Shown in pieces: positions 14,439 through 46,713 of a DNA stretch of 48,852 nucleotides. The notes beneath the pieces were generated by a model, which worked only from the letters and a program-made list of their open reading frames with translations, was not told the DNA's origin and did not search any database. Origin of the DNA: Candidatus Poribacteria bacterium (GTDB taxonomy: Bacteria; Poribacteria; WGA-4E; GCA-2687025); the NCBI GenBank assembly GCA_027625215.1, contig JAQBWJ010000001.1:1-48852 (forward strand), given 5' to 3'. Both the position numbers and the translations under genes were made by a program. Each line of letters begins with the position of its first letter. Position 1 is the stretch's first letter.

Positions 14439-14485
14439 CACTACCTCACCGGAAGCCCGACGGTGGAACCCGCCGCGATCCGAGA

Positions 14486-16152: not shown

Positions 16153-16164
16153 CCGCGCTTTCCA

Positions 16165-20063: not shown

Positions 20064-20159
20064 CGGGAAGGTCTACAAATGACATTGTGCGACGTAGTCC
20101 TTTGCGGTATAAGGGTGACAACCGATTCCGATCTCACCTCTCGTCAAGAGGGATGCCTG

Positions 20160-26108: not shown

Positions 26109-27626
26109 ATCCGCAACCGGATCGTTCCCAAGATCAAGCCGTTTGCGCTCTTGATCGGCGACCCAGATCCCTTGTCGGATCGACTCCGCCGTCGTACGTG
26201 GGGCGGGAAGATCGTAGAATGGCAGCTTGTTCGTTCGTGGAGAGCCTAACAGCTCGGCAAGGTGCGATCCCTCTTCACAGAGATCGAGGTGACGGATGAG
26301 CTCGTCCCGAACGGATGGATTCCTCGCGAGTTCGGGGGCGATTCGGAAAAGCGTCGAAGGCTGTCGCCGCGACGCTGGAATCTCAGTTCGCGTTGAATCT
26401 GGACTTCGCGGAAACCGTTCGGTCCATCTGAACGTGACACAAGACGGTCAACGCGCGATCGTCTGACGCCACGTCCGCGCTTCGACGGGGCACAAACGAT
26501 CGGCATGTGTTTTGCGCTGGTCAACGAGTCGAGTCTTGTCGGAGTCGCGCGATAGGGAGGGCGCTCATGGACAACGAAGCCGATCCGAAAGCGGTTGAAG
26601 ACGCCAACGCCAGCGCCAACGAGTGGTCAGCGAAGTATCGTGAGTCGCTTCGCCGTCGACTCGGACGGCAAGCCACTGCACCAGACGGTGACTCAGAGAC
26701 GCCCCCCCAGCACGAAAAGGGACAAATCGGCGCCCGCGCCGTCCGATGAACGCGACAAAACGCCGTCGGAACTTGACAAGGACACGTGGCAGGCGCAGTT
26801 CAACAAGGAGTTGCAACGGACGACGGAGCGTCCGTCGGAGACTATCGATCAATCTGTCGAATCTCGTGAATCAAACGATTCGCCGAACCCACCGACACCT
26901 GTTGCACCATCAACTCCATCCAAGCGTCATTGGCTGAATCCGCGTTGGATTCCGGTCGGAATCGCCGTAGTTCTGTTGATCGCTCCGCTACCGTTCATCT
27001 ACCAAGCGCGTTATCGCGAGGATCCGACCGCGTTGACCGAGACGCGAGGCGAGTCGAAACAGGCAATCGCCGCGTCACCCATATCGTCAGTCGCCGAAGC
27101 CGTCCCTCCAACAAGTTCGGTACCCGCATCCGCGCTCGTTCAGACGTACGCTCTGCTCGTGGGCGTCAGCGAGTACGACTATTGCGCAACGCTCCCTAAC
27201 CCGGTTTCTGACGTGCGAGCGCTCGATAAGGACCTGCGCGAAACGTACGGAGTCGAGACCTCGCTCCTGTTAAACCCTGATCGACAGACGTTTTTAAAGG
27301 CTCTCTATGATCTTGCCAAGATGCCGTCCGAACCCAATAGCCAACTACTGGTGTTCTTCGCGGGGCACGGATGGTTCGATGAGACGGTGCGAAAGGGTTA
27401 CATCGCGTTGAAAGATAGCCGGATGCTGGTTGACGATCCATTCGGCGATACGCTCGTCGCTCACGAGGTGATTCGATCCATTCTGGAACGGCTCGACAAT
27501 CCCCATGTCCTGTTGATGTTGGATTCGTGTTTCGGGGGAACGCTTGACCCCGTCATCGCGATGGCTCCCATCAATCGCGGTGAGGAAGCATCGTACCGGG
27601 ATCTGAGCCCCAAAAACCGCACTGGT

Positions 27627-28541
27627 TCAAGGGCTAATTTCGGCTAAGGTTTGGGATGGCGTTCCCTCCATGATGCGCCCAAGGTACCACTCGGGCGGTC
27701 GGTAGTCCAGCGACGAGTGCCGCCGGAGTTGGTTGTAGTAGTTCAGATGCGCGTGGACGATCTCACGCACCTTGTCGAGCGTGGCGGCGTGGTAGACCGC
27801 CTCGCCGATCTCCGTCTTCATCCGTCCCCAGAACGCCTCGATCCAGGGGTTGTCCTTGGCTCCGTGCTGGGCGTAGGAAAGGCGGGCATGGTCTTCCAGC
27901 AGCACCTGGCGCAGCCAGTCGTGACTGGTGTAGACCGAGTCCCTGTCGTGGTGAATGATGACGCCCTCCAGGTCTCGGTGGTAGACTTCCATTCGAGACC
28001 GAAGATGGGTCAGGGCGGACAGGGCGGTCTGGCGATGCCGTTGTGCCGCCACCGTCCAACCTCCTGCCCAACGACTCTTGATATCCAGCAGCACCATCGC
28101 CCACCCCTTCTTTCGACCTTCGGCGTAGACCAGTTCGGTGAAGTCGGTCGAGAAGGCGTTCAGCGCCGACAACATCTTCCCCTTGACCAGATCGGCGTCG
28201 GAGCCGACCTCTCGGATCAGCGTTTGAACCCGTGACGGCATGGCGGCAGGCAGACAACGCGGCAATCCGATCTCGTAGCGGGACAGTACCCGCCGCACCC
28301 GTTTGTGGTTGACCGGCTCGCCCAGGCGTTCGCTCACTTCGGGCGTGATGCGTCGGTAGCCGTACCCCGGATGCGCCTCGATGACGCGGGCGATCTCCCG
28401 CCGCAGCCGGAATTCCTTCGCGCTGGGTTCACGCCGCTGATGCGCGTACCAGACGCTTTTGGACAAGCCCACCGCGTCCAGACACCCGTTCAAGCCGTAC
28501 GTCTCCCGATGCGTTTCCACCAGTTCCACCTTCGCCGTCAC
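27627..28541 (-). CDS. IS3 transposase OrfB (DDE/rve)
   Basis: TDFTEL..., HHDRDSVYTS, and NPWIEAFWGRMKTE...YYNQLRRHSSLDY is an rve pattern. Probably made as an OrfAB fusion by -1 frameshifting. Confidence 0.85.
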   Translation of the reverse strand: MTAKVELVETHRETYGLNGCLDAVGLSKSVWYAHQRREPSAKEFRLRREIARVIEAHPGYGYRRITPEVSERLGEPVNHKRVRRVLSRYEIGLPRCLPAAMPSRVQTLIREVGSDADLVKGKMLSALNAFSTDFTELVYAEGRKKGWAMVLLDIKSRWAGGWTVAAQRHRQTALSALTHLRSRMEVYHRDLEGVIIHHDRDSVYTSHDWLRQVLLEDHARLSYAQHGAKDNPWIEAFWGRMKTEIGEAVYHAATLDKVREIVHAHLNYYNQLRRHSSLDYRPPEWYLGRIMEGTPSQTLAEISP

Positions 28542-28543
28542 GG

Positions 28544-28822
28544 TCAGGGCTTTCCCATGAAGTTGCGGAGCAGGGCGATTTCCAGTTCCTTCTGTCCCAG
28601 CATCCGTTCCAGTTGTGCCTGGCGTTTCTCCGCCTTCTTGACCTCCTCCTTGCCGCCGAACACCTCGGCGCCGTGATCAAGGAACTGCTTCTTCCATGCG
28701 GCGAGCGTCACCGGGTGCACGTCATGAGCGCGGGCGACTTCGGAGTCGGCGCGCTTGCCTTCGAGACATTCCACCACAAGTCGGAACTTGAATTGCGGGG
28801 TGTAGGTCTTGCGAGTTGCCAT
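28544..28822 (-). CDS. IS3 transposase OrfA (HTH)
   Basis: TYTPQFKFRLVVECLEG...VHPVTLAAWKKQF is the IS3 OrfA pattern. Confidence 0.85.
   Translation of the reverse strand: MATRKTYTPQFKFRLVVECLEGKRADSEVARAHDVHPVTLAAWKKQFLDHGAEVFGGKEEVKKAEKRQAQLERMLGQKELEIALLRNFMGKP
28550..28556 (-). other. Candidate -1 programmed frameshift heptamer G GGA AAG
   Basis: In the orfA frame ...atG GGA AAG ccc tga. The -1 frame reads GKALTVTAKVEL, continuous with OrfB. Confidence 0.6.
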
Positions 28823-29519
28823 CGGTTTCCCTCCGTTCGTTGCGGAGAGAATACCATCCGACAGCCAAAGCCGACATTAGCGATCCAGCTGGATCGGTTT
28901 TTGGGGCTCACTCCCCCGCCTCGTCTCGTCGCCCGAGTTGATTGAGCGCAAATTGGCGTACAGGACTCGCCGGTTCGTCACATCCGGCGGCAAGCAGTAT
29001 GTACCCGACGGACGCCCGGGGTACCACAGCCCCTTCGCGCATCAGTTGTTGGAAGCGCTGAGATCGAACGGAGGAAGCGATGGCATTCTGTCGTTTGAGG
29101 AACTTCTCGGCTATTTGGAACGAGTCTCTCCGCAGCCGCGCACGGGAGAACTCTCGACGAACGAAGCGGGGAGCAGTTTTCTCTTTGTGTCGCGCCACGC
29201 GGAACTCAAGCCGACGCCCGTCAAAGCCGCGTTCGGCGATCTCACGGTCGAACTGTTTCCCGCAAACGCGGAGGTGTCGCTAAGGAAACTCCGCGTTGTG
29301 GAAGGGTCTGATTCCACCGTCGGTCCTCTCTCCGTACGATCGGGCGTCCACCAGTTCCGGGTAGTGCCCGGCGCATATGCGATGATGGTAACGGCGGCGG
29401 GATATGAGCCGGTGTCTCGAGAAATCGTCGTCCGCGAAGGACCGCAGACAGAAACAGTGCGTCTTGTCAGGCAATAGGTCGGCGCCGGAACTTCAAGTAA
29501 TGCGATTAGGGAGGCGATC

Positions 29520-31352
29520 ATGTGTCCGCTTTTCCGAGTTACTTTGTCGCTGACGTTGATCTGCGCGGCGTTCAATCTGTCCGCAGAAACGTACGCGGTC
29601 ATCGTTGGGATCAACGAGTTCAGACCGGTCGGCGTTCGCCGTCTGCAATACGCCGAAGACGATGCGCGCTTGATGCGGGACGCGTTGATCCAGTACGCAG
29701 GGGTGCGGGAAGAGAATATCCGCCTGATCGTCGGCGAAGAAGCGACTCGCGCATCCATCGGGCAAGCGGTCGCCGGTTGGCTCCGAGTAAGCAGTTCTCC
29801 GGGCGATACGGTGGTGTTCTACTACGCTGGGCATGGGATGCAACTCTTGGACGATAACGGCGACGAGGAGGACGGATTCGACGAGACCATACTCGCCGTC
29901 GATTCCAATTTACTCGACATCACGTTTATTCGTGATGACGATCTCAATCGGTGGTTGGGCCATTCGGCTGCGACCCGAAAGATTGTCATTCTCGATTGCT
30001 GTCATTCCGGGACCGCTTCACGCGCGATGGCAAACGTCACCGTTCGCGCCGCCGATCTTGATCCTTACGATGTATTCATCGCCTCATTGGATGCGAAGGA
30101 TGACGCTGAGCGACAACTAGTCGTCACAAACCGGGATGCGGACGGCACGCTTGTTCGTTTGCCCGTGTTGGTCGATGCGGTCACTGTTCCGCCGTCAAAG
30201 ACCGAAACTCTGGAACTGTCGGCGTGCCGTCCGGACCAGGTGGTCGTTGAAACAAGCGGATTGAAGCACGGAGCAATGACCTATTACGTCGCACAGGGAA
30301 TGCAAGGAGATGCGGATGCCGATCACAGCGGTCATGTGACGTTCGGAGAACTGCGTGATTACGCGAAACGTCATATCCGCGAGCTCGGCTTCGATCAGGA
30401 ACCGCAACTCTACGGCGATGGGATCGACTTGCTGTCGATGGTTCCGGTGGTCGGGGAAACAACGTCTTCGTTCGTACAGACGGTCGCGATGCGGGGTACA
30501 CAGAGCTTGTCTTCGTCGGTGGTCCGCCCCGTCGTGTTGAATCACCCAACAATCGTAAACGAACGTGCCCTGCTTGAAATCCCATCGCTCTTCTATGAGG
30601 TGATCGCGGACGAACAGGTTCCGACGCGATTGGTCGAGGTGTTTCGCGCACAACTCGCCTCAGCCGTCCGATCCGCCCCTGACATCCTTGAGACGCAGGA
30701 CTCGACCCGGTCGGATCGAGTCCTACTGATTTCGAGCCATTCCATCGCCCACGATAAATATAGAGTTGAACTCGCAAACCCCTTCGATGGTCGTATCCTA
30801 TCCGTATGGAATATGCGCGAGAGCGACGACTTCCCGACGGGATTGGTCGATGTTTTGGTGACTGCGCACGTTGTAAAACTCGTCGCCGCGATTCAACCAC
30901 GCACTTCGGCATCGTTCGTGATATTGGAGGGTCCCGACTACGCGCGGGCGGTCGATCCGGTGACGGTTACGGTACGGTCGACCCGTAGAGGTTCTCTGAT
31001 TCTACTCATTACCGCGCCGGACGGAACTCTAACCGCGATCCGCCCATCGTCGGGCGAGGAGGGCGGGGTAGCCGGAGTCCGCCAATCCGTTGTCATTCCG
31101 AAAGGCGTGCTGCGGTTAACCGCGTTGGATCGACGCGGGATGGGGATCGTCAAGGCGATTCTTCTGCCAGAAGCTCAATCGTTCGGTTCGATCGGATTAC
31201 CGGAACCGTCTCAGGGTAACACGGTCGTCTTAGCGGGACGCACCGCAATTCTCGCTCTAAAACAAGTGATTGAACGACTGAATGCGTTGCCGTTCAATGC
31301 ATGGTCGGTCGATGCGTTGCCGATGATGATTATTGATGAGAATGTCCATTGA
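29520..31352 (+). CDS. Secreted caspase-like (C14) protein with about 370-aa unassigned C-terminal region
   Basis: Signal peptide (LSLTLICAAFNLSA/E), then YAVIVGINEF...YYAGHG...ILDCCHSG. Confidence 0.85.
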   Translation: MCPLFRVTLSLTLICAAFNLSAETYAVIVGINEFRPVGVRRLQYAEDDARLMRDALIQYAGVREENIRLIVGEEATRASIGQAVAGWLRVSSSPGDTVVFYYAGHGMQLLDDNGDEEDGFDETILAVDSNLLDITFIRDDDLNRWLGHSAATRKIVILDCCHSGTASRAMANVTVRAADLDPYDVFIASLDAKDDAERQLVVTNRDADGTLVRLPVLVDAVTVPPSKTETLELSACRPDQVVVETSGLKHGAMTYYVAQGMQGDADADHSGHVTFGELRDYAKRHIRELGFDQEPQLYGDGIDLLSMVPVVGETTSSFVQTVAMRGTQSLSSSVVRPVVLNHPTIVNERALLEIPSLFYEVIADEQVPTRLVEVFRAQLASAVRSAPDILETQDSTRSDRVLLISSHSIAHDKYRVELANPFDGRILSVWNMRESDDFPTGLVDVLVTAHVVKLVAAIQPRTSASFVILEGPDYARAVDPVTVTVRSTRRGSLILLITAPDGTLTAIRPSSGEEGGVAGVRQSVVIPKGVLRLTALDRRGMGIVKAILLPEAQSFGSIGLPEPSQGNTVVLAGRTAILALKQVIERLNALPFNAWSVDALPMMIIDENVH

Positions 31353-31733
31353 GCAATTGGGATGGTGTTCTCTACAGGAATCGTTGTTGATATGCTTCCC
31401 GTCATCTTCCATCAACAGGAGTCAGGAAGATGGCGCGTGCGCGTGTGTATCGTCATGATGTGCGGTGTGTGGAGTGCGGATCGAATTGGGTGAAGAAGTT
31501 CGGCAAAACACGCGGCGGAGGTAGCACCCCATTAAACCGTGAAACGGGTTGGAGGTAGCCGAAAGTCGTGAAATCGTGTGGGTTCGTTGGACGTACCAGA
31601 TGTGAAACGACATCTGAGGCTCCCCCAAAAACTGGGCACACCCTTAAGGTGGAATGGTCGGATCAGATGAAGGACAATCGTCCTACGGCGAGGCGATTGT
31701 CGAGACCGACCTCTCCACGTGGAGGATGCCCGG

Positions 31734-32041
31734 ATGAGGACACGAAAGCGCCACGACGCGCGCTTCAAGGCGCCGAGCTTCGCTCCGTCGCTCCGCGACC
31801 CTTGGAAGCGCTGACGAACCGACGAACGCTCGCCGAGATCGCCAGCGAGTATGCCGTTCACCCTAATCAGGTCAGTACATGGAAGAAGCAGGCGTTGGAA
31901 GGACTCCCCAGCCTGTTCGCCCACAAACCGGATCGGGAACGGCGTGAGGCGGAGGAACTTCAAGCGGAGCTCTACCGCCAGATCGGTCAGCTGAAAGTCG
32001 AGCTGGACTGGTTGGAAAAAAAAGTGGGACGCGTCGGTTGA
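31734..32041 (+). pseudogene. IS3 OrfA, frameshifted
   Basis: The ATG at 31734 (GGAGGA-N7) reads MRTRKRHDARFKA and then hits a stop at 31814. The homologous remainder (LEALTNRRTLAEIASEYAVHPNQVSTWKKQ...) is in another frame. An A8 slippery run lies at 32016-32023. Confidence 0.7.
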
Positions 32042-32084
32042 GGAGAGACGATGTCTGATCGAGGGAGGACCCGCGCAGATTTCG

Positions 32085-32895
32085 GTGTCGCGGCAGTGCG
32101 AGTTGATCGGTCTGAATCGTTCGATCTTCTACTACGAACCGGTCGGGGTCTCGGAGTTGAATCTGAGGCTGATGCGGCTGATCGACGAACACTACACGCG
32201 GATGCCGTTCCTGGGCGTTCCCAAAATGACCGCGTGTCTGGTGAGGGCGGTCGGCTTTCCGATCAATCCCAAGCGGGTCGAACGCCTGATGCGCCTGATG
32301 GGATTGCAGGCGATTCGTCCCAAGCGGAAGCGTACCTCACAGGGCGGCGGCAAGGTGTATCCGTATCTGCTGCGGCAGATGCGCATCGAGCGGCCCGATC
32401 AGGTCTGGTGCACCGACATCACGTACATCCCGCTGGATCGGGGCTTCCTGTATCTGGTGGCGATCATGGACTGGTTCAGCCGGTTTGTGCTGGCGTGGGA
32501 GTTGAGCAATTCGCTGGATCGGTTCTTCTGCGTGAACACGCTGGATCGCGCCCTGCGGACCGCGACGCCGGAGGTCTTCCACAGCGATCAGGGAAGCCAG
32601 TTCACCAGCAAGGAGTTCACCGGACGCTTGGAAGCGGCGCAGATTCGGATCAGCATGGACGGTCGCGCCCGGTTCTGGGAACGAAGACCCAACGGGGTTG
32701 TTGGGTCTGAGAGGATTCATCGAGCGGCTGTGGCGAAGCGTCAAATACGAGGAGGTGTACACGAAAGACTACGCGGACGGATGGGAAGCCCAACAAGGAC
32801 TGGACGCCTACTTCCGGCTCTACAACACCGAGCGACCCCATCAGGCGTTGGACTACCGGACGCCCGAAGAGGTCTATCAGAAATCGGACCGATGA
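32085..32895 (+). pseudogene. IS3 OrfB (rve), frameshifted near 32660-32700
   Basis: QVWCTDITYI...HSDQGSQFTS...ISMDGR is in one frame (track ORF 32085..33164). FIERLWRSVKYEEVY...YNTERPHQALDY is in another (track ORF 32698..32895). Confidence 0.75.
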
Positions 32896-33068
32896 AAACC
32901 GGTTGCCATTCCACCTTAAGTTCGCCGATTTCGTGCCCAAAGAATGGGGGTAGCCTCATCATCGAGAAAGGATATCGTACAATCAACATCGTCGCGCCGA
33001 GACTTGGCCGCCGTTGCCGCTTGAGCTTCGATGAATCGGTCACTTCCGGCTTGTCTGGGTCGCCAGTC

Positions 33069-35174
33069 CTATTCAAGCGAATTGAGTTCAAGCGGATCGC
33101 GCGGGTCGCTCGGTTTCTGCGGCGGGAGCATCAACACAGGGATCGCCTCTTCCAAGTGTCGTGAGATGAGCGCGATGCTGCCGCCCGGCTCGTGACCGTA
33201 AAGCTCTCCTCCTTTCGGCTGTGGACGGACTTTTTCCAACTCCATGAGGATTTCTTCCAACGTTAGAATGCCGTCCGCGCCGCCCAAACTGCGCAGCGCG
33301 AAGAGAAAACTGCGCGCGAAGGGGCTGTGCTGTCCGGGCCTGCCATCCGGGACGTATTCCGCGCCGCCTGAGGTGATGTAGTATCGCGTCCTGTGCGCGA
33401 GCTTGCGTCCCACGTACTCCGCCCGGCCAGCGTCGGAATAGATAGGATCGAGTCCTCGATGGCCTCCGAGAGCGACGCTCGCGTCGAGCGTCCCGCTAAA
33501 ACAAGCGTCCACGATCAAAGCGACGTGTCGACTGTCGAGTCGTTCCAAGATGGTTCTGATTTCTTCGTGAGGCACAAGGCTGTCTCGGTAAGGGTCGTCT
33601 GACAGTCTTCGGCTGTCGCTTAGCGCGAGATAACCGCGCTTCGTCCTATCGTCGAACCAACCGTGTCCGGCGAAAAACACGATCACTTGGTCGTGAATGC
33701 CGTAATCTCGGTCGGCAAGAGCGTAAAGCGAATCCAGGAACTCTTCGCGTGTTGGATTTGTGATCAACTCGGTCGAGCAACGATACGTCTCCCGAAGCTC
33801 TCGCTCGATTGCGGTTGCGTCAGCGACGGGATTCGCCAAGTCGGCGACATGAACGTAATCATCAACGCCGGCGACGAGCGCGTAAACGACCGGATCGGCA
33901 GACGGTTTCGCGTTCTCATCCGTCGCAGCGATCTCGCCAGCGGGTCGATCCGCCTCCAACTCATGCTCCACCTCTTCGGAATTGGGATGCTCCGTTGGAT
34001 CCAGCTCCGCCCGGAGCCTCCGTCCAAGGTCCTTTTGAAGCTGGAACAAATCGCGACCGGCGATGTCGGCGGTCTCCATCACTTCGCCGGTTTGCGCATC
34101 GATTCGCCGAGCGTTTAGATAGTAGATGTCGCCGGCTTGCCGGTATCCTCCCATCACGAGAAAGCGCACGTTCCAAAGCGTTCCCGTCTCAACAGCTGTA
34201 TTTGGATTGAACAACGGCGACGCCTGCAGCTGTTGTTCATTCACAACGCGACGCAGCTGTCCTCGCTCGACCAGCCGATAGCTGCTCAGAGACTGAAGTT
34301 CCGTCGTGAGCGACTCTTGAATCGAGGAGCCGATCCACGCGAATTCAGGCGCATCTCCGAGGTTTTCAAAGGGCAGAATCGCGATAAGCGACTCGGAGCC
34401 CGGTTGTGACTGCGCGGTGTCGAGATCCTCCCATGTTCGCGCTCTCATACCGGCGCCGACGGGAGCCTTCTGTCGCGCGACCCGCGCAACGCATTCTGTG
34501 GGACGGACCTCCAAGACTTCAAGCGTCGCGATTGGGACGGTGCCCTTCGCAATGACAAGCATGTTCCCAACCGAAATTCCGTTCTCTTCTCCCAGGTTGA
34601 CAAGAATGTTCTCGTCCGTCGCCTCAACGACGGTTCCCCACAATGGATAGGCGTCGAGGATGCGCGGCATGAGCTGACGGACCAAGGGGCGGACGGCAGC
34701 GACCCCATGTGCAGCGAAGCTGCGTTCGACGACTTTGCGGCCCTCAGCGATGCGAACAAACTCCACGTCCGCTCTCATGGCGATATTCGAACCTGACAAG
34801 GTCGTCATGATCTCGTAGTCTGCGCCGCCAGACGTCTGTACGACGAAGTGACCTGACTCATTGAGGGCAGTTCGTAAGCTCGCCGCGAATGCTTCTTCAA
34901 TGTAATCCGACCGCGCAGCCGTGTGCGCATTGGTAACGCCACCGACAACCACAGTCGGTCTCCCAGGCCACGTCTCCTCTCTCTTCACGCCTGCTCTGTG
35001 CTGAGCACTACATGCCGTAAGGACGCAAAGCGTGAGACATCCGAAGAGCATCATTGTTTTTGGTCGCGTTCGCGTATCCGCCGCGTTCGGTGGCTTGCTG
35101 AACATCATTGCTCCCCCAGTTCGGTGTTCTTGTGGCGCGTCGAAACCCGCGAGTCGGTCTGGATCAATCGTCAT
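33069..35174 (-). CDS. Lipoprotein with CsgG/LpoB-like modules and a C-terminal caspase-like (C14) domain
   Basis: LTAC lipobox. IAILPFENLGDAPEFAWIGSSIQESLTTELQ...LVERGQLRRVVNEQQLQ is a CsgG/TolB-N-like pattern. The C-terminus has YALVAGVDDY...FFAGHG...IVDACFSG. The start overlaps the upstream stop (ATGA). Confidence 0.8.
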   Translation of the reverse strand: MTIDPDRLAGFDAPQEHRTGGAMMFSKPPNAADTRTRPKTMMLFGCLTLCVLTACSAQHRAGVKREETWPGRPTVVVGGVTNAHTAARSDYIEEAFAASLRTALNESGHFVVQTSGGADYEIMTTLSGSNIAMRADVEFVRIAEGRKVVERSFAAHGVAAVRPLVRQLMPRILDAYPLWGTVVEATDENILVNLGEENGISVGNMLVIAKGTVPIATLEVLEVRPTECVARVARQKAPVGAGMRARTWEDLDTAQSQPGSESLIAILPFENLGDAPEFAWIGSSIQESLTTELQSLSSYRLVERGQLRRVVNEQQLQASPLFNPNTAVETGTLWNVRFLVMGGYRQAGDIYYLNARRIDAQTGEVMETADIAGRDLFQLQKDLGRRLRAELDPTEHPNSEEVEHELEADRPAGEIAATDENAKPSADPVVYALVAGVDDYVHVADLANPVADATAIERELRETYRCSTELITNPTREEFLDSLYALADRDYGIHDQVIVFFAGHGWFDDRTKRGYLALSDSRRLSDDPYRDSLVPHEEIRTILERLDSRHVALIVDACFSGTLDASVALGGHRGLDPIYSDAGRAEYVGRKLAHRTRYYITSGGAEYVPDGRPGQHSPFARSFLFALRSLGGADGILTLEEILMELEKVRPQPKGGELYGHEPGGSIALISRHLEEAIPVLMLPPQKPSDPRDPLELNSLE

Positions 35175-38100
35175 TCGTGCGCAGCGCTCGGGAGGCTGCC
35201 TGAATATGGCGCCGCTTCTTCGGGCACAATTCCGTCTACGCGGATGACGACATCGTCGTAAAACCCCAAATCACCAAATAAATCGAGAACGGTCGAGTCC
35301 AACGGCAAATCCTCCCAGCACAAGATGTAGGAATCAACCGCGTTCGAATCTTCTAAGCGAATCGGAAAGGCGATCAAATGGATCTCGCCATTGTTCGCGT
35401 CAGTCTCGCTTCTCCAAATATGCTCGCGGCCCTGATACCGGACGCGAATGTAGAATCCGAACGATCCGTCATTAGGATGGAATTCAATGGCAGAGGAGGC
35501 ATCGGCGACCGATTCAAAGAGCTGATGGTCCTCGCCGCCTTGATACCATCCCACGGCGATGTCCGCTGCAGTCTGTTTGAATACAACTGATACGGACGGC
35601 GCGGACGGCGCTCGGAACATTCCCGCAACGACCGGATCCGAGAGCGTTTCAGCAGGAAAACCCGACCGCGCAAGACCGCTGCGCGCGTTTTTCAGGAAAA
35701 CTTGCGGAGGCTTCCCTCGATGCGTTCTGTGCGTGGGATACGGAGTCCACCACAATTTGCCGGTGGGTCCAAGCGACTGCAAACGCTCCACGTCAAATCC
35801 GTAGACCACCTCCGCAGGTTTGTATCCTTCGATGCCGGACTTACGCTGAGCATAAAGAACCGCGGGATCCCCAACCGATTGACCGAATGCCGTTGAACCG
35901 GGCGGCGCAATACGCACGCTGCCCTCAAACCCATCCAATGCCCACTGAATCTGACCTGTTTGCTTGTCAATCGCATACAACGGTCGTCCGGGAAGGTAAA
36001 TCGATCGATCTCCGACGGCCATGCTGTATCCATCGTCGCCTATGCTCCATCGATGCGAACCATCGAACGACCAGACGGGGTTATCAGACTTTTGATCAAA
36101 CGCAAGCAAGTAGTAGTCAACATGGACGTAGAGCATATCGTCGTCTACGGCGAATTCCGAAATCGGCTCACGGAAGTGATATGGTAGAGGGACGCGTCGC
36201 AGCACGGCCCCAGTCTCACGGTCAAGCGCCGTCAATGCCCCAGGTGCCCGAATAGGCGCTCGACGCCCGTCCTCCGGGTACGACCAATACAGTCCGCCTG
36301 AGAGCGCGTAGATCAACCCGTCGCGAAGCAATACTTGGTGGTGCAGGCTCTCAAAAGGAACCCGCCAATTCAGTTCGCCGGTTTCCTTCGAAACCGATAT
36401 CAATACGTCCGAGTCGATGATGAGGACATCCTCGACGTCGATATAGAGGGTCGTAAGAAACTCCGGAAGTCGCCAACTATCGCCGTCGTCGGAGACTACA
36501 GCGCCCCGCTTGAATAGGTGCGGCGTTTCCGGGTCGCTGAACCGCCATATCAGGTTTCCGGTCGTCTTATCGATGACGTACAGAACGCCGCCGGCTCCCC
36601 AATAAACCTCGTCTCGAATCTCAAGCTCCGGTAGGCCAATGCCGAGCGGCGTCGGCGTGGCCGGTTCGCCTTTGAACAGCCAAATCGCCTTGTGGGACGC
36701 TCGGTCAAACGCGCCCAAACTCGGCGCGGATCGTTCATTGACCGCAGCCCTGTCATAGAACGCGACATATACCGGTTCGCCTCGCGGAGGAAACGCGCCG
36801 TCCGTCCTATAACCATAAAAGCTCACAAACGCCTCGCCCAGAGCCCGAGGATCTGACGATTCGTCCTTCCACCAGCCATGTTCGGCCATCAAATCTGATC
36901 CCTCGCGCATGTACAGCGAGTCTCCGATGAAGGTGAGAGGAAAGCTGCCCCACGGTCCATTGGGCCGTGCCCATGCATCCTCCGTGCGCACTGCCGGTAG
37001 AAGTTCGTCAAGGGATCGCGCGTCAGTAGAGGACCAATAGCTCAACGCCTGTTCATCGTGAAGCTGACGCCTGATCGAACTCGGAGTCGATTCGTACGGA
37101 GAGTTCACAAGGAATTGGTGCCGCGCCTCAATTGCCTGCGCCATATCGCCGCGCGCGGCGTACGCTCGCATCAATAGCCAATCAATCTGCCGAAGGTCGG
37201 CCCCTTGCGCTCGCGCGTCGGACAGAACGGCGATGGCATCCTCGTTGCGCCCGAGGCCAACAAGGGCTGATCCGATGCCTGCCAACACATCGCGCGCTGG
37301 GACTTGTCCCGGCAACACCACGTATGAAGAACGGAGCGAATGAACGCTGCGAGCCCCATAGAGACCTTCAACGACCACGTACGCATGGTCGTCATCGAGA
37401 AGTAATTCTGCTATTCCGCCCGGAGAAGAATGGCGCCACAATTCTTCGCCTGTCCGGCCGCTTCTCGCCGCTAATATGCCTGGGTTGTCCTGATTATCCG
37501 GTTGCGGTTGCTCGAACGTGAAGAACATTCCGACATCGCGAGGCTGCGCCGTAGGGACGATGAGGGTCTTCCGCATGTCGGACCAAAGAAGCTCATTCGA
37601 CTCGATTGATCGGCTCTCCAAGCTACGGGCGATCCAATCCTGTGAACAGATACTATCCTGAGTGACGACCGCGTTAGCGTCGGCGTGCGCAAGGATTTGG
37701 CCATCATGTAGACCTAAGACATATGTTCGACTGTCATAGTACGGAAGTAAGTACGTGACAACGAAGCGGTCGTCGACAACTTCCATGCGCACGACACTGC
37801 CCTCCATAGGAAAGTCGTAATGCCACCTCACTCCCCCGTCCGGCTTTTCTAACGCACAGACTGACCCCGGCGAACCTGCGACGCCTACGAACACGGCGTC
37901 CCTATTCGCGAGCAGAACCGGGTGAAAGACCGCCAAGCCTGGCGGGTCGAGCGATTCCGCTATCTCGATGCGCTTAACTTGCCTGGCCCGAAGGATCTCC
38001 ACGCTCCTTGTAGCCGTCGGCTGTTCAGCAGTGGCGAGTTGGACGAACTCCTTCGTCGAACGCAGCGGCGCTCCGTCGATCGACTGCAACACATCATAAG

Positions 38101-39865
38101 TAACGATTTGTTTATTGGTCGAGTTGCCAAAGACAAGCAATCCGCGCGTCGCCATCTCCTCTTCGTCCCGGAACGAATCTAAGGCGGCCTCCGCTAAATT
38201 AAGTTCTCTGTCGCTCAGGACATCGCGGGCATGATTAACCCGGCGCTCGTAGTCCGATCCCTGTTTCTTAATGGACTCTAGCTCAACAGGCAACAGGTCA
38301 CACCATGGCGCTTTGAGACTCATTACGCCGCCAAGCGGGCGCCGCCATCGTTCTTCTCCCGAATCGGACTCCAGAGCCAATAGCTGATCGCGCGACGCCA
38401 CGTAGACCAATTCTTCGTCCGCGGCAAATCCGCCAGTACCCAACAACCCGGAGTCCGTCTTCCAGAGCGCCGAGCCAGAGGCCAGATCGAACACTTTCAC
38501 GATGCCATCGTCAAACTTAACACTGCACCGACCCGCCGAGACGCTCATCGTCGGCCACGTGTCGGTAGACCACGGGCTTTGCGCGTCGTGGCGATGCGTC
38601 CATAGCTCGTCTCCCGTCCCAATGTCCAACGCCGCGATTCGATGATTGTCCACGCTAATCACGATCGTGCCGCCCGACCCGCCGAATGGTCGAACTTGCT
38701 GACCAGGCCCGGCTCCGAAGGTTGAATCCTCCTCGAACTCTCGTTGAACCGGATCCGTGATATATGTCCAGCGAGTCGAGCCAAGACGATTGTCGATCGC
38801 TGTAACACGAAAGACGTAGCCTTCAGGCGACAGACTCCAGACCGGGATGAACATCATCCCGCCGTACAAAAACACGTCGTAAGCTCGGTTGATCCAATCA
38901 TTCTTGATTTCGATTTGCCAATTGAGCAGACTCGGCGGCCGCGCCTTCTCTTGATACTCCTCAAACAGCGCCAACGCGCTTTCGTAATCCTCCGCGACGA
39001 GACTGTACTGCGCTTCGGTGAACAGTCTCGCGTTGAACTCCTGTTCGCGTATCCGTCGGCTTTCGTCCCGTCGCCGTCGCGCCTCGGCGCGAATCGCCGT
39101 CTTTTGCGCGTCGTCAGCAACGTCCTTCTGCCGCCGAAGCGCCTCGATCAGGCTCAATTCTGCAGCTTGATAATACGCGCCGCTCAATGTCTCCAACGCC
39201 TTGTCATAGAGCGACTTTGCGCGTTCGTAATCGCCTTGGTATAACGACTGCTGGCCAAGATTGAAATACTTGTCGGCGACGAGCGACGTTGTCTCTTTCA
39301 AGCTCAACTGTTCGATCTCTGCTGCTGACGGGTCGATGCCCATTGACCGCAACAACGCCAACGCCAGTTCGGTTTCCAGATCGAACAGCTCTCTCACTTC
39401 GCCCTGAACGCTATTCGCATTCATAATCTCGCCGGTTTCAACATCGACGGTTCGCACGTTCGCGGTAATCCGCGTCCCGAGATCGTCGCCGGATCCCGTA
39501 AGACTGACGCTGCCCAAGATGAGTCGCTGACAACCGATGTAGGAGCCGATTTCTTGGTGTTCCTCTACGGTCATCTCGTCGAGAGAGTCCCGCGCGATGC
39601 CGCGCGCGCGCAACAAGTCGTTTAGCCGAACCCGTTCAACGACGGTCATTCTCTCGGAGAGCTGCGCCAGCTTTGATGCCATGCTCTCCGAAAAGCTCAT
39701 CGCGACCCATGCGTCGTCGGGATATGCCGAGAGGTGGTTTAGCGTCGTGACCGCGACGACCGGCAGCTCAGGCGAGGAGTTTTCATCCGATGCGTCCTGC
39801 TGCGCCAAGGCGACAACGGCCAACATGTGAAGGATCACTGTGATCGTCACACGCGCTTTGCTCAC
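35171..39865 (-). CDS. 1564-aa secreted protein: CsgG-like module, TPR, multiple PQQ/BamB-like beta-propeller repeats
   Basis: Signal peptide (LAVVALAQQ). Also has VVERVRLNDLLRARG...RLILGSV and YFNLGQQSLYQGDYERAKSLYDKALE. The recurring motif TG(D/E)xxW is seen as GDELWTH, GSALWKT, GEERWRR, GVRWHYD, GEELWRH, GNLIWRF, GELNWRV and GQIQWAL. Confidence 0.85.
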   Translation of the reverse strand: MSKARVTITVILHMLAVVALAQQDASDENSSPELPVVAVTTLNHLSAYPDDAWVAMSFSESMASKLAQLSERMTVVERVRLNDLLRARGIARDSLDEMTVEEHQEIGSYIGCQRLILGSVSLTGSGDDLGTRITANVRTVDVETGEIMNANSVQGEVRELFDLETELALALLRSMGIDPSAAEIEQLSLKETTSLVADKYFNLGQQSLYQGDYERAKSLYDKALETLSGAYYQAAELSLIEALRRQKDVADDAQKTAIRAEARRRRDESRRIREQEFNARLFTEAQYSLVAEDYESALALFEEYQEKARPPSLLNWQIEIKNDWINRAYDVFLYGGMMFIPVWSLSPEGYVFRVTAIDNRLGSTRWTYITDPVQREFEEDSTFGAGPGQQVRPFGGSGGTIVISVDNHRIAALDIGTGDELWTHRHDAQSPWSTDTWPTMSVSAGRCSVKFDDGIVKVFDLASGSALWKTDSGLLGTGGFAADEELVYVASRDQLLALESDSGEERWRRPLGGVMSLKAPWCDLLPVELESIKKQGSDYERRVNHARDVLSDRELNLAEAALDSFRDEEEMATRGLLVFGNSTNKQIVTYDVLQSIDGAPLRSTKEFVQLATAEQPTATRSVEILRARQVKRIEIAESLDPPGLAVFHPVLLANRDAVFVGVAGSPGSVCALEKPDGGVRWHYDFPMEGSVVRMEVVDDRFVVTYLLPYYDSRTYVLGLHDGQILAHADANAVVTQDSICSQDWIARSLESRSIESNELLWSDMRKTLIVPTAQPRDVGMFFTFEQPQPDNQDNPGILAARSGRTGEELWRHSSPGGIAELLLDDDHAYVVVEGLYGARSVHSLRSSYVVLPGQVPARDVLAGIGSALVGLGRNEDAIAVLSDARAQGADLRQIDWLLMRAYAARGDMAQAIEARHQFLVNSPYESTPSSIRRQLHDEQALSYWSSTDARSLDELLPAVRTEDAWARPNGPWGSFPLTFIGDSLYMREGSDLMAEHGWWKDESSDPRALGEAFVSFYGYRTDGAFPPRGEPVYVAFYDRAAVNERSAPSLGAFDRASHKAIWLFKGEPATPTPLGIGLPELEIRDEVYWGAGGVLYVIDKTTGNLIWRFSDPETPHLFKRGAVVSDDGDSWRLPEFLTTLYIDVEDVLIIDSDVLISVSKETGELNWRVPFESLHHQVLLRDGLIYALSGGLYWSYPEDGRRAPIRAPGALTALDRETGAVLRRVPLPYHFREPISEFAVDDDMLYVHVDYYLLAFDQKSDNPVWSFDGSHRWSIGDDGYSMAVGDRSIYLPGRPLYAIDKQTGQIQWALDGFEGSVRIAPPGSTAFGQSVGDPAVLYAQRKSGIEGYKPAEVVYGFDVERLQSLGPTGKLWWTPYPTHRTHRGKPPQVFLKNARSGLARSGFPAETLSDPVVAGMFRAPSAPSVSVVFKQTAADIAVGWYQGGEDHQLFESVADASSAIEFHPNDGSFGFYIRVRYQGREHIWRSETDANNGEIHLIAFPIRLEDSNAVDSYILCWEDLPLDSTVLDLFGDLGFYDDVVIRVDGIVPEEAAPYSGSLPSAAHE

Positions 39866-39922: not shown

Positions 39923-40432
39923 TCATGCCCGCGCCATACAGTGTCGGCCGCGTCTCGCCTTCGGGAAGCGCGCCCCGATCCTGTCCCCGCAACACGGACA
40001 CCGCTTGATCTCGGCGCGATGCTCCGTGACCTCCATCCGAACCGGCGGAAGGTCGAACACCTGGCGACGTTCGATCCGGTCCGGTTCCACGTTGGTCAAA
40101 TCCCGCTCACACCGAGGACAGGTCGCCGCCCGATGCGTCTCGATGCGGTCCGGCGTCTCGACCATCCGCAACGTATGTCCCTTGTGACCGGGCTGTCCGC
40201 CGCTCTTCCGCTTGCCGCGAGGACGCAGACTCTTCGGAGCGGGTTTGCCGTACCCGTCGCTGCTGGGAGGCTTCCCGCTGTTCCGGCTGTTCTTCGCGAG
40301 TTGATCGCGCAACGCCCGATTCTCCGCTTCCAACGCGGCGATCCGTTCTTGCAGAGACAGGATGACCTCGATCAGCCGTTCGAGGTTCAAAGCCGCGAGT
40401 TGGTCGCGAGTCCATGTCGGCGACGATTCCAT
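39923..40432 (-). pseudogene. IS66-family transposase, N-terminal fragment only
   Basis: Leucine-zipper region, then GKPPSSDGYGKP...GGQPGHKGHTL...CPRC...CPCCG (IS66 Zn-finger region). It stops after about 165 aa, so the DDE domain is absent. Confidence 0.75.
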
Positions 40433-41356: not shown

Positions 41357-42232
41357 TCAACCGATCCGATATGCGTTCGGATCGCTCATCTCTGCGGACT
41401 TCCAGATTTCTGCAAAGATTGTCTCCGGCGCAATCCGCTCCATGTTTGTCAACCAGATAAACCGCCGTTCCCGCAGATTCAGTTCGCTCGCGGCGGCGCG
41501 CATGTTCTCGACGCGGGTCTCGCTCGTCGTCACGAACAGCACGCGGAACCCCTTGAACGGTTCGCACTTGAAGTCGTCCGCGTACCGCTGGTAGCCCTCC
41601 TCGATGAAGTAGCGGTAGTAGAACCCGACGGCGCGGAGGAACCCCTTCTCCGGGTTCGTCAGCACCTCCGTCCCCCGGTCGATCTCGACGAAGAACAGGG
41701 CGCGCCCGTCACCCTTCCGCAGCGCGAACACCGCGTCGGGCGTGTACCCGATCCGCCGCTCCGGGTCGTGGATGTCGCAGACGAAATCGCGGATGTATTT
41801 CGTCCAGCCGCCCTGCGCCGTCTTCTCGCCGTGATGCTCCGGGATGAAGCCGAGCAGTCCGAGGTCGTCGCGCGTTTCCAACGCCTGCGTCAGCGTGATG
41901 CGGAAGTCGTTCAGGGCGATGAAATGCTTGAGGAAGTAGTAGTCCTTCGGCGCATGAGAGACCCGCTGCGCCCGCAGTTCATCGGTCGGACACTGAAGGG
42001 TCTGCGCGACGAGATCGATCCCGCGTGGCGTCAGATAGAAGACGCGATCCTCGACGCCCGGCGACTGATAGCCCTTCAGATAGTCGTGCTCAATCAAGAC
42101 GCGGAGCCGGCGATTCGCCGTCTGCCGGGAGGGGAACCGGAGTCGCTCGACCTGCGCTGTCGTCAGATAGCGGTGTTTGTACAGGTCGAGGACGACGCCG
42201 ATGTCCCGATCCGTGATGAGCGGTTCCCGCAT
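41357..42232 (-). CDS. Replication-relaxation family protein
   Basis: DRDIGVVLDLYKHRYLTTAQVERLRFPSRQTANRRLRVLIEHDYL is the Replication-relaxation N-terminal pattern. Lies 22 nt downstream of the coupling-ATPase gene. Confidence 0.75.
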   Translation of the reverse strand: MREPLITDRDIGVVLDLYKHRYLTTAQVERLRFPSRQTANRRLRVLIEHDYLKGYQSPGVEDRVFYLTPRGIDLVAQTLQCPTDELRAQRVSHAPKDYYFLKHFIALNDFRITLTQALETRDDLGLLGFIPEHHGEKTAQGGWTKYIRDFVCDIHDPERRIGYTPDAVFALRKGDGRALFFVEIDRGTEVLTNPEKGFLRAVGFYYRYFIEEGYQRYADDFKCEPFKGFRVLFVTTSETRVENMRAAASELNLRERRFIWLTNMERIAPETIFAEIWKSAEMSDPNAYRIG

Positions 42233-42254: not shown

Positions 42255-43945
42255 TCAGGCGTCGAACGGGTCGCCCGGATCGAACCCGTCCAGCGGCGTC
42301 CGTTCCTGCTCTTGGGCGTCCTCATGCGACTTCTGCGAACGTGCGCGGGAAGACGCCGCCGCGACGCCGGAGTCGAACCGCTCCCGTCGCGCCGGCTCCG
42401 CCACTTCCATCGGCTCGACACCGTAGTTCTGCCGGGAACGTTCGATGATCGTTTTCGCGCGGGCGTGGTCGGGGTACTGGTCGGCGAGATAGGTGTTCAT
42501 TCGCACCGTCGAGTTGCCGATCTTGCAGAACGCCTCCCCGACGCGGAGATGGACGAGTTCGTCCGCCGCGACGTGTTTCAGTTCGCCCTCGCGCCGGATG
42601 AGAAACTCTTTGGAGAGACGGGTCGCGTCGTCGTGCGAGACGACGAAGCCGACGACGCAGGCGACGTTGCCGAGAATCTCGCGGACGAGGTTCAGCGGAA
42701 TCTGGCTCGTCGTCTGATGCGCGAGGACGAGTCCGAGTTTGTACTTGCGGGCGCGGCTGAGCATCTTCTCGTACGAGGCGGTCGCCACGTCCGTGAAGGT
42801 CTGAAACTCGTCGACGTAGAGCCAGAAGTTGCGCCGCTGACGCATCGGCGTGTCGGCGCGGCTTGCGGTCGCCAGTTGGAACTTCGAAACGACGAGTTGC
42901 CCAGGATGCTGCAGTTCGTCTCGCCGAGAATGCCGTCCGAGAAGTTGAACAGCATGATCTTGCCGGCGTCCATCGCCTTGCGGAAGTCGAAGGAGGGCGT
43001 CGGCTGGCAGAGGACGTTGCGGATCGTCTTGGGACGGAGGAACCGTCCGAGCCGGTTGACGATGGGCAGGTGGGCGTCCTTGGGGAAGCGCGGGTACACG
43101 TCGCGGAAGAACCGTTCCGTGTCCGGGTCGCGCGTCTCGCGGATGACGATCTCCCGAAACAAACCGTCGTCCGGGTCAAGCAGTCGCGGCACATCCAATA
43201 AGGTTGATCCGGGTCGTTCTAAGAGGGCGTAGACGGCGTGACGGAGGATCTCGTTCATGCGGTGTCCGCCTTCACCCATGATCCGCTGAAAGATCGTCAG
43301 CAGTTCGTCGGCGCGCAGATCGATGTCTTCGCCGTCTTCGAGATGGAGCGGGTTGAAGCAGACAGGTCGCTCCGTGTCGGCGGGGTTGAAGTAGATGACG
43401 TCGTCGATTCGGTGATCGGGGATGTAGGGCAGCACCTCCTCAGTCAGCATCTCCTGCTCCGGCGCGATGACGCCGATGCCGTCGCCGCGCTCCACGTCCT
43501 GCTCGATGAGCGTGCGGAGGAAGTTCGTTTTGCCCGAACCCGTTTTGCCGATCACGTAGACGTGTCGCTCGCGGAACGGCTGCGCCAACGAGACATCGAA
43601 CCGCGCCCCGTCTCCGAGCGGTTGGTAGCCCAGCACGACCGCGTTATCCGTCTTCGCCTGTTCCGTCATCCACTCCAAAATCTCGTCCGCCGTCCAATCG
43701 TGTTCGACGAGTTCCAGCACCTCGTCGACACTGACGAACTGCTCAAACAGTTGCGGCTGCTGTTCGTAGAGTTCGTTGAGAATCCGCAGGCAGGCGTCCC
43801 GGCGGGACTGTTCCGAGAGCCACTCCTGTGTTTCCTCGCGCTTCGCCTGAAGGCGTCGTTTGTCTTCGGCGCGGCGGTAGATCATCACCAGGACGACCGC
43901 ACCGATCACGAGAAGGAACAGGACGATTCCAGCCGAATCTTCCAT
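42255..43945 (-). pseudogene. TraD/VirD4-like coupling ATPase with N-terminal TM helix, split by a 1-nt frameshift near 42900
   Basis: Track ORFs 42692..43945 (IVLFLLVIGAVVLVMIY, GKTGSGKT) and 42255..42845 (FWLYVDEFQTF, LVLAHQTTSQ). The frame switch falls at ...CSILG/QLVVSKFQLATASRAD..., colinear with paralog 4817..5983. Confidence 0.8.
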
Positions 43946-44084: not shown

Positions 44085-44169
44085 ATCTTCTTCTGTTAAT
44101 CTCTACATTCCATCGTCGGACTGGCTGCGCCATCCGACTTGGTCGACGGGTGCGACCGCCGAACCTCGC
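44085..44169. repeat. Direct repeat copy B of the 85-nt block
   Basis: See 1-85. Lies in the divergent intergenic region between the coupling-ATPase/relaxation operon (-) and TPR-like paralog B (+). Confidence 0.9.
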
Positions 44170-44220
44170 CCCCTGAAACCGGCGCGTTCACGTTGACTTG
44201 ATCGACAGGAGCAACTTTCC

Positions 44221-44253
44221 GATTGACGCAAAGTGTAAGAAATGTTAGAGGAG
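44221..44253 (+). promoter_or_regulatory. Conserved 33-nt promoter-like block, copy B
   Basis: Identical to 136-168. Confidence 0.35.
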
Positions 44254-44315
44254 CGTTCAACCGGATTGATTGATGTGTGGTCGGGAAAAGTGAATCGACG
44301 ATAAGGAGGTCGTGA

Positions 44316-44951
44316 ATGGCTGGTTCCGAATTCAATCTGCGGGTCGCGTTAGGCTTGGTCGTCAGCGTTGAGGAAACCTACGAGAAAGTGTTCGCCGAGG
44401 TGCGTTCCAACATCCGGGAACGAGACGCCGAGATGGAACGCGCCGATTTCTGGTCGTGGATCAGCAAGTTCGTCAAGAGCTTCTTCTCCACGCATCGGGA
44501 GATGAAAGACATCCACTCGCTCCACGCGGACCTCGACCGCGCCGTCGCGATCTGCGATGCGGTGGACGCGAACGTCACGATTCCGAACCCCGAAAACCCC
44601 GACGTGAAACTCGGCGCGCCCTCCGTGAAGGCGATGGCGCTGTTTCAGAAGGGAATCCTCCTGCGGAATCAGGGCGATGTGCAGAACGCCATCGAACAGA
44701 TGAACCAGTCGCTGAGGGTGGAGCCGGATCAGGCGACGCTGTACAACATCGGACAGTTCTTCATCGACCTGCGGGAGCAGCGCGGCGGTCAGGACGGCGG
44801 GCTGGGTGCGACGGTCAAGAAGATGCTGACGTCGGGCGCAGAGCAGACGGACCAGGCGATCGATGCCTTCCGGCAGTGCGTCTCGATGAACTCGGAAAGC
44901 GAGATCGCCGTCAAAGCCGGGATGGAACTCGCGCGGTTGGAGCAGTTGTAG
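44316..44951 (+). CDS. Hypothetical helical (TPR-like) protein, paralog B
   Basis: AAGGAGG precedes the ATG. Paralog of 231..842. Confidence 0.8.
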   Translation: MAGSEFNLRVALGLVVSVEETYEKVFAEVRSNIRERDAEMERADFWSWISKFVKSFFSTHREMKDIHSLHADLDRAVAICDAVDANVTIPNPENPDVKLGAPSVKAMALFQKGILLRNQGDVQNAIEQMNQSLRVEPDQATLYNIGQFFIDLREQRGGQDGGLGATVKKMLTSGAEQTDQAIDAFRQCVSMNSESEIAVKAGMELARLEQL

Positions 44952-46518: not shown

Positions 46519-46713
46519 CCGGTCAGCATTCGGTGGAACCTTCCTTTTCGTTCCGCGCCACAATCAACCCTCTGAATCGACCATACAAACTCACCTACGA
46601 CGACAGACTGCTTACTGCTCGTCCGTCCGAACGGGGCAGACGACGTGATGCCCGTATTGCGCCTGTCGACCGAGACCATTTTCCGCAATCAGAGAAAAAC
46701 GAGGAGACTCGAT

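Follow-up and report, generated by a model that had tools for sequence, protein, structure and literature searches.

Caspase homologues are widespread in bacteria, where they have been studied mainly for cytoplasmic functions such as cell death, defence and differentiation. Among described proteins, the orthocaspases, such as Microcystis MaOC1 and Geobacter GSU0716 (PDB 3bij), carry the caspase-haemoglobinase fold and a His-Cys dyad, typically with variable accessory domains (WD40, TPR, FGE-sulfatase, DUF4384). In the cell envelope, NlpI-Prc and LbcA-CtpA each pair a TPR-containing adaptor with a periplasmic protease, and involve a lipoprotein anchor and a PDZ element. Here we analysed a complete contig of 48,852 bp from a Candidatus Poribacteria bacterium (JAQBWJ010000001.1; the window), in which three Peptidase_C14 genes, A, B and C, lie together with a gene for a 1564-aa protein, D, inside 26.6–39.9 kb. 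The products of A, B and C resemble the orthocaspases in fold and catalytic dyad but, unlike orthocaspases generally, all three appear to be exported or membrane-anchored.

Some elements of this locus have precedents. Exported bacterial caspase homologues were already noted in a 2012 survey, in which CsgG and PQQ domains had zero occurrences (PMC3501461), and the caspase–DUF4384 architecture has also been recorded (PMC7475262). The first-pass annotation of this DNA did not recognise the cluster as a described system. This was too broad for exported caspase homologues as such, but it stands for the tandem of A and B and for the module fusion in C, as we found no paper on caspase–CsgG/LpoB fusions, exported caspase tandems or Poribacteria caspase homologues. 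Three features appear to be new. Two C14 subfamilies occur repeatedly as a tandem, lipoprotein C joins a caspase to modules of the LpoB/CsgG superfamily, and C is paired with the giant scaffold protein D.

Domains were called by Pfam profile scans, with gathering scores of 21.4 bits for Peptidase_C14 and 20.8 bits for CsgG. The presence of three C14 proteins was confirmed: all score above threshold (A 52.8, B 79.5 and C 49.3 bits) and all have intact dyads, FFAGHG (His258) and DSCFGG (Cys312) in A, YYAGHG (His105) and DCCHSG (Cys161) in B, and FFAGHG (His504) and DACFSG (Cys558) in C. In the family alignments the columns of these His and Cys residues are invariant or nearly so. By profile score and catalytic motifs A, B and C belong to peptidase family C14, and structural models show the caspase fold for B and C. 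The same fold is expected for A because its caspase domain is 52% identical to the modelled domain of C. Export calls were made by reading the sequences and by a crude hydropathy scan. They agreed with the earlier statement that each protein has an export signal: a transmembrane (TM) helix in A, signal peptides in B and D, and a lipobox in C.

The locus consists of two separate units, A–B (unit 1) and D–C (unit 2). Our preferred reading, to which we assign a probability of about 0.5, is that the two units encode envelope-anchored C14 proteases with targeting and scaffold domains, and that they are partly decayed plasmid cargo.

The product of the 5′ part of gene A (26595–27603, plus strand) has a long N-terminal stretch of low complexity, followed by a TM helix (nt 26946–27005; residues 118–137 in the hydropathy scan) and a caspase domain of the A type from nt 27147. 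Because basic residues precede the helix, the caspase domain is predicted to face outward. The gene is interrupted at 27604–28910 by a 1307-bp IS3-family insertion sequence (IS) on the minus strand, element 1, with 42-nt terminal inverted repeats of the form TG...CA beginning TGAGCCCCAAAAACCG. The element carries an orfB with rve, rve_3 and HTH_21 domains (27627–28541, minus) and a putative orfA (28544–28822, minus). The 3′ part of A (28915–29477, plus) encodes the end of the caspase domain, which bears the SGGKQYVPDGRPGYHSPF motif, and a beta-sandwich tail. No clean target-site duplication was found at element 1. Removing 27604–28914 in silico restores the frame and gives a 523-aa open reading frame (ORF), whose product aligns across the junction with C and with intact A-type orthologues. 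Orthologues of A lie on four other contigs (L009, L010, L013 and L093). The insertion disrupts gene A, as had been noted, and has inactivated it here. The TM anchor earlier ascribed to A is also present, but the PEGA domain ascribed to it scored 15.5 bits against a cut-off of 20.8. CarboxypepD_reg was also below threshold (21–23 bits against 32.3), and the same tail in the A orthologues reached 30.4–30.9 bits with that model, again under the cut-off. We refer to the tail as PEGA-like.

The caspase domains of A and C belong to one subfamily, with the motif SGGxEYVPDGRPGxHSPF. An exhaustive search with C against 1.84 billion representative proteins returned 576 representative clusters at E < 1e-30. 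Nearly all of these matches were limited to C residues ~420–680 (one begins at residue 314). Among the best 149 matches, 136 start with methionine. A crude scan showed a hydrophobic segment, either N-terminal or ahead of the caspase domain, in 109 of these, so that the subfamily is apparently large and mostly exported. Among the domains that accompany the caspase are WD40 (in 16 of the 65 proteins scanned), Ig-like beta-sandwiches and FGE-sulfatase. No relative of the subfamily in the PDB was detectable by sequence.

Gene B (29520–31352, plus) encodes a 610-aa metacaspase-like C14 protein, predicted to be secreted, which is only ~24% identical to A. Its N-terminus starts MCPLFRVTLSLTLICAAFNLSA, a short signal-peptide-like segment, and is followed by the caspase domain (nt 29586–30419), a disordered linker, an alpha/beta domain (nt 30576–30887), a diverged DUF4384-like beta-sandwich (~nt 30900–31169) and a C-terminal element. 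The likeness to metacaspases extends to an acidic DDNGDEEDGxDE stretch after the catalytic His and to matches with plant and fungal metacaspases in sequence and fold, those with plant metacaspases being found by sequence. The AlphaFold2 (AF2) model of B has a mean predicted local distance difference test score (pLDDT) of 81.9, and its best Foldseek matches were the metacaspases AtMC9 (E = 8e-14) and AtMC4, and Geobacter GSU0716. It also shows a well-folded alpha/beta domain (residues 353–456), a beta-sandwich and a terminal beta-alpha-beta element.

The 370 residues of B that had been left as an unassigned domain turned out to be the conserved C-terminus of the caspase + DUF4384 family. The alignment of B with P0156, P0157 and P0162, which are annotated as caspase family/DUF4384, runs from end to end (36–38% identity, 91–96% coverage). 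In P0156 the DUF4384 domain (70.2 bits, E = 1.6e-19, residues 443–519) lies in register with B residues ~460–550. B itself gave no match to this model at E ≤ 1, because its own region is too diverged for the Pfam model. These alignments assign B to a known family, one whose tandem arrangement with an A-type gene is undescribed in the literature we found. Several named homologues (P0157, P0162 and P0165) come from bins labelled Candidatus Poribacteria. An LpoB/CsgG-like identity for the alpha/beta domain of B was considered and found no support in sequence, as hhalign gave a probability of 3.8%; the Foldseek matches of B were dominated by its caspase domain.

For A and B, the expectation that neighbouring genes of the cluster would recur together elsewhere was borne out. 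Besides the window, the A–B tandem was found on four other metagenomic contigs that carry the closest full-length relatives of B (L009/L012, L010/L011, L013 and L093), with the A-type gene directly upstream of the B-type gene in the same orientation and gaps of 8–43 nt (8 nt in L009/L012; 43 nt in L010/L011, as in the window). The upstream genes encode a TM helix, a caspase domain and a PEGA-like tail. In L093 the helix is not apparent in the A-type gene as called, whose called start may be wrong, while in L013 the protein has a long acidic N-terminus like that in the window and then the TM helix. Not every B-type gene is part of such a tandem, as an adjacent A-type gene was lacking at five other B-type loci. 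No sequence like the C N-terminus or D was present in 80 metagenome loci around B-type relatives, and none like C or D in L009–L011, L093, L094 or L096. Since A–B is found elsewhere unaccompanied by C or D, A, B and C do not make up a single system. The first-pass annotation had placed all three caspases and D in a single extracytoplasmic assembly, and what is left of this proposal is the pair C and D, which adjoin and share a module. Within unit 1, A would be an inner-membrane-anchored caspase with a PEGA-like tail, and B a secreted metacaspase-like enzyme.

The surroundings of the tandem bear on a possible role in defence or programmed death, in which the exported caspases would cleave an envelope target after phage attack or envelope stress and so kill or arrest the cell. 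On the contig in the window, genes for AbiGi-like, PIN and IrrE/M78 proteins and a DNA methylase, and a diversity-generating retroelement (DGR), lie nearby, and A, B and C each score against the ‘caspase’ model of PADLOC, with E-values from 3e-12 to 2e-19. However, this match is to the generic caspase domain only; D has no PADLOC match, and no system-specific protein set was matched. No gasdermin, CHAT-partner, NTPase or sensor domain was detected by Pfam in the scanned ORFs. Elsewhere, the neighbours of the tandem in L009, L010 and L093 include yidC, rnpA, miaA, thioredoxin and recO, which are ordinary chromosomal genes and not those of a mobile element (the L013 contig is too short to show neighbours). 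The caspase-like defence proteases known to us are, moreover, cytoplasmic. We give this explanation very little credence.

In unit 2, gene C (33069–35174, minus; 701 aa as listed) encodes a lipoprotein caspase with the lipobox L-T-A-C at Cys55 (nt 35010–35021). The lipobox is followed on the minus strand by an N1 region with a weak module and a small beta-barrel (nt 34470–34967), an LpoB/CsgG-like module, N2 (nt 33999–34391), and an A-type caspase domain (nt 33159–33887). In addition to Peptidase_C14, the Pfam matches were CsgG at 34.1 bits (residues 255–343), FlgO at 21.0 and LpoB at 19.6. The AF2 model has pLDDT above 90 in the caspase domain, for which the best Foldseek matches were MALT1 (E = 3e-9), caspase-9 and metacaspases. 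For want of homologues, the first 420 residues are modelled with pLDDT below 50, and this part did not enter the fold assignment.

Gene D (35171–39865, minus) encodes the 1564-aa protein, a predicted exported scaffold. Its N-terminus starts MSKARVTITVILHMLAVVALAQQ and is a signal peptide without a lipobox. It is followed by an LpoB/CsgG-like module (nt 39338–39763) with a CsgG score of 21.1 bits (residues 70–157), just above the cut-off, a TPR called by Pfam (nt 39191–39277), a PQQ/BamB-like propeller region (nt 35906–38878; PQQ_2 E = 1e-35 in 5 stretches) and a C-terminal domain without assignment (nt 35174–35728), all on the minus strand. Signal peptide, CsgG-like module, TPR and BamB-like blades had all been read correctly in the first pass. 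Embedded among the propellers is a PDZ-like segment (nt 37961–38116, minus), with a sub-threshold PDZ_2 score of 20.3 bits on the isolated segment. The blades of D match PQQ_2 and BamB models, but BamB is a lipoprotein of the BAM complex with a single 8-bladed propeller, and D has an extended multi-blade region and a non-lipoprotein signal peptide. Identification of D as BamB was rejected on its scores (TIGR03300 67.8 bits against 285.2; NF008351 39.6 against 423), its 1564-aa length and the lack of a lipobox.

D has two distant relatives, P0004 (clear) and P0005 (remote). P0004 is 33% identical to D, covers 74% of it and has CsgG, TPR, PDZ_2 and PQQ domains. The contigs of both, of 4–7 kb, carry no caspase and are too short to show a gene at the position of C. 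In L001 (ENA ERZ24794676, 2106–7343) the tblastn alignment of D passes the called stop of P0004 at 6056 and reaches 6629. It enters a downstream ‘TPR’ ORF, and the D-like frame seems to run to the contig end; the gene may be longer than called, or interrupted. In L003 (JGI 3300051204, 1–4297), P0005 is preceded by a protein with a kinase-like C-terminus, a TM helix and an LpoB/CsgG-like module. The gene after P0005 has first 45 residues nearly identical to the N-terminus of P0005, which suggests tandem paralogues of the module–TPR–propeller architecture.

The module said to be common to C and D is indeed shared: C residues 262–392 are homologous to D residues 35–176 (26% identity over 126 aa, E = 8e-7). 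The underlying CsgG-like calls also held (C 34.1 and D 21.1 bits against 20.8), each covering part of the 210-position model (C 3–97, D 51–152). The PDB entries matched by a profile of the module, built from C, D and related sequences, were LpoB (E = 1.3e-5), the CsgG periplasmic domain (E = 3.5e-5) and chains with a FlgO domain (E = 0.026). When the module was aligned to CsgG (4uv2), a gap of ~23 residues fell where CsgG has a long insertion, which we take to be the transmembrane beta-hairpin that forms the outer-membrane pore. These comparisons identify the module as a superfamily-level envelope module (LpoB/CsgG/FlgO), not a CsgG channel. The channel was rejected on the partial model matches and the absent hairpin segment. 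There were no csgE or csgF curli genes among the scanned window ORFs, and neither csgE/F nor penicillin-binding protein genes among the ORFs scanned nearby. LpoB, the PBP1B activator, was rejected on score (TIGR02722 20.6 bits against 110.55; Pfam LpoB 19.6 against 22.3). Like LpoB and CsgG, C is a lipoprotein, whereas D has an ordinary signal peptide.

Elsewhere the module is found with kinases, TPR, PEGA and, rarely, caspases. In L003 it comes after the kinase-like C-terminus and TM helix, in L004 it lies inside a Ser/Thr kinase–TPR protein, and in L005 it stands alone as a small CsgG/LpoB-like protein. A protein of L006, from a Candidatus Electryonea clarkiae metagenome-assembled genome (9842–11734), has the module ahead of three PEGA domains and also has DUF5683, which shows the module and PEGA to be part of a common set of envelope domains. 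The L006 protein adjoins a subtilase with a type IX secretion system (T9SS) tail.

Do C and D form a functional pair? The main rival to our preferred reading is chance accretion, in which paralogous genes for exported proteases and a gene for a repeat protein came together by IS rearrangement on a plasmid; C and D would then be independent of each other, and their module no more than a domain common in the periplasm. In its favour, the units are flanked and kept apart by three IS elements or remnants, A–B occurs elsewhere without C or D, and other genomes join the module to unrelated partners. C and D, moreover, have no conserved pairing. A D-like gene was not found in 185,579 species genomes, JGI metagenome contigs or IMG/VR. 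The species genomes gave three weak module-only matches, without a caspase; IMG/VR gave one caspase-only match to C, and the JGI metagenome contigs none for a C/D-like pair. Nor is C a local duplication of A, because it is closer to A-type orthologues on other contigs (57–60% identity in the caspase domain) than to the neighbouring A (52%). Two observations are not readily accommodated by accretion. The first is that D and C are adjacent and co-directional, and at most 63 nt apart. The second is that caspase, module and TPR are combined in two independent architectures elsewhere, P0048 and the P0009 locus. We consider accretion less likely than our preferred reading, though it is the most serious of the competing explanations.

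The exact junction of D and C depends on the start of C. The ATGA overlap of the C start and D stop at 35171–35174 exists, as first reported, giving a 4-nt overlap. However, an alternative start, ATGATG at 35108, lies 66 nt downstream and 2–5 nt after the Shine–Dalgarno sequence GGGGGAG. It gives a normal positively charged n-region ahead of the lipobox and leaves a gap of 63 nt. From these sequence features 35108 is the likelier true start, and translational coupling of the two genes, which had been proposed from the overlap, is for this reason not established. D–C is probably a lineage-specific two-gene unit and an operon.

P0048 and the P0009 locus independently lend some support to an association of caspase, module and TPR, and they provide what we see as the best argument, from sequence comparison, for cooperation of C and D. 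P0048 has an A/C-type caspase, the module and TPR on one polypeptide. In P0009 the module stands between FlgT_N and a caspase that has a PEGA-like tail. Its locus (L007, 4283–13136; NCBI GCA_964577695.1) is a run of closely spaced co-directional genes, an apparent operon, that also encodes an LPP20-like protein, a TPR/SLH protein and several small proteins, three of which are lipoproteins. One of the lipoproteins matches the hidden Markov model of the module and the FlgT_C model, and the other two resemble the N1 beta-barrel region of C. The locus may represent a recurring envelope gene set around an A/C-type caspase.

Several points weigh against the preferred reading. Only two of the 149 best caspase-subfamily representatives, P0048 and P0009, bear the module, and peptidase activity of the A/C subfamily is a prediction from sequence. 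The export calls on A–D come from sequence inspection and not from a trained predictor. No orthologue of C was found among the 1.84 billion representative proteins in the exhaustive search, in which all matches besides C itself align to the caspase region only; a word-index search returned C itself and one weak caspase match. No locus pairing a D-like gene with a caspase appeared in our scans, in which the contigs of the D relatives span only 4–7 kb. The common module is weak evidence for a C–D complex because it is promiscuous, and the module of C is closer to that of P0004, from another metagenome (35% identity), than to that of D (26%). Promoter and terminator scans returned sites no more frequent than in shuffled sequence or by chance. 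Finally, expression of D is uncertain because its upstream region abuts a truncated IS66-type transposase ORF (39923–40432, minus), which retains the N-terminal 169 aa only in the ORF map, with DUF6444 and zf-IS66 domains, and ends 57 nt upstream of the D start codon.

If C and D do act together in the envelope, as we favour, the lipid anchor and the LpoB/CsgG-like modules of C would tether its A-type caspase domain there, and the TPR, the sub-threshold PDZ-like segment and the propellers of D might recruit substrates or present them to C. More generally, the lipid anchor, the TM helix and the modules would put the proteases of the locus at the envelope. The logic of D–C would be that of NlpI-Prc and LbcA-CtpA with a different protease class, an analogy and not a homology. 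There is no sequence relationship, and where those pairs use an S41 serine peptidase, the protease here is a C14 cysteine peptidase. It is also the protease, C, and not the adaptor that bears the lipid anchor, and the sub-threshold PDZ-like segment is on the scaffold D.

A more elaborate scheme would be a two-tier extracytoplasmic protease relay run by some bacteria, in which one member of the A–B tandem would control or activate the other in the manner of initiator and executioner caspases. C–D would be a second version, with a lipid-anchored A-type caspase domain coupled to a dedicated TPR, PDZ-like and propeller scaffold for substrate recruitment. We regard such a relay as improbable.

The same export signals could serve proteases that are secreted or surface-exposed and directed at a host or competitor, with the propeller/TPR protein as an adhesin-like binding platform. 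Members of the Poribacteria are known as sponge symbionts, and host proteins are the targets of exported clan-CD cysteine peptidases such as the gingipains. Bins labelled Candidatus Poribacteria are the source of the closest named relatives of both the A and the B type, and all four products are exported by the calls described above. However, no sorting signal of a secretion system was found, as Pfam scans showed no T9SS C-terminal domain or type I secretion repeat. Anchoring by a TM helix or a lipid, like the LpoB-like modules, indicates a place in the envelope of the cell itself. We think this the least probable of the explanations considered.

The cluster had been described as lying in mobile DNA, and the rest of the contig agrees with this. 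It carries a Rep3 initiator (20079–21575), a Replic_Relax gene (41357–42232) and two TrwB-like coupling proteins, at 4817–5983 and, as two overlapping and apparently frameshifted ORFs, at 42255–43945. There are also one serine and two tyrosine recombinases, a PD-(D/E)XK and Rad52-like pair and, among the genes mentioned above, an N6/N4 DNA methylase, PIN, IrrE/M78, AbiGi-like and the DGR. The contig looks like a plasmid or other mobile element. There was no terminal overlap that would indicate circularity; the contig start (1–334) is repeated internally at 44085–44419 as a 342-bp repeat with 81% identity, and paralogous TPR genes lie at 207–842 and 44316–44951. No near-identical DNA to the C–D segment was found among PLSDB plasmids. 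Genes for a Peptidase_C39-like cysteine protease (45483–45941) and a PD40/TolB-like propeller protein (46645–47619) are also present on the contig.

A second IS3-family element (31615–32958, plus) occupies the space between B and C, whose 3′ ends converge, and has matching terminal inverted-repeat segments (31615–31657 with 32906–32958) and HTH_Tnp_1, HTH_21 and rve domains by Pfam. This element is intergenic and interrupts no gene. Two IS insertions had been taken as signs that the cluster is costly or decaying; element 1 does split A, but it is the only one of the two to disrupt a gene.

The DGR, about 9 kb from the cluster as first noted, is genuine: its template (TR, 14327–14439) and variable region (VR, 16041–16153) differ at 22 positions, 20 of which are TR adenines. 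That DGR targets can bear caspase-like domains, also raised in the first pass, is stated in the literature (PMC7517822). Diversification of the caspase genes by this DGR was ruled out, as its single VR lies outside the cluster; no second VR was found anywhere in the window, and 26.5–39.9 kb has no match to the non-adenine positions of TR. The DGR target is an FGE-sulfatase ORF (16165–17640, minus) without a caspase domain. About 5 codons upstream of VR this ORF contains an in-frame stop (...YITDVYSTN*WKARRGGSWNV...), whose codon ends 9 nt before VR. Because the stop precedes VR, VR lies beyond it, and the target looks like a nonsense pseudogene or would require read-through. FGE-sulfatase domains, of the same family as the DGR target, are also borne by P0010 and P0017, two close A/C-type caspases among the representative-library matches to C; P0017 has a PEGA-like tail as well.

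The C–D unit is a singleton, and alone it supports only a hypothesis of scaffolded proteolysis. Beyond that unit, the locus highlights a caspase subfamily that is large and apparently exported, and the recurrence of two C14 subfamilies as adjacent genes, with one product membrane-bound and the other secreted. We know of no characterised periplasmic or surface protease of this caspase class. Activity of these proteins in the envelope would mean a further class of cysteine proteases in the periplasm or at the surface, and A–B would offer a concrete pair in which to study control of one protease by another outside the cell.

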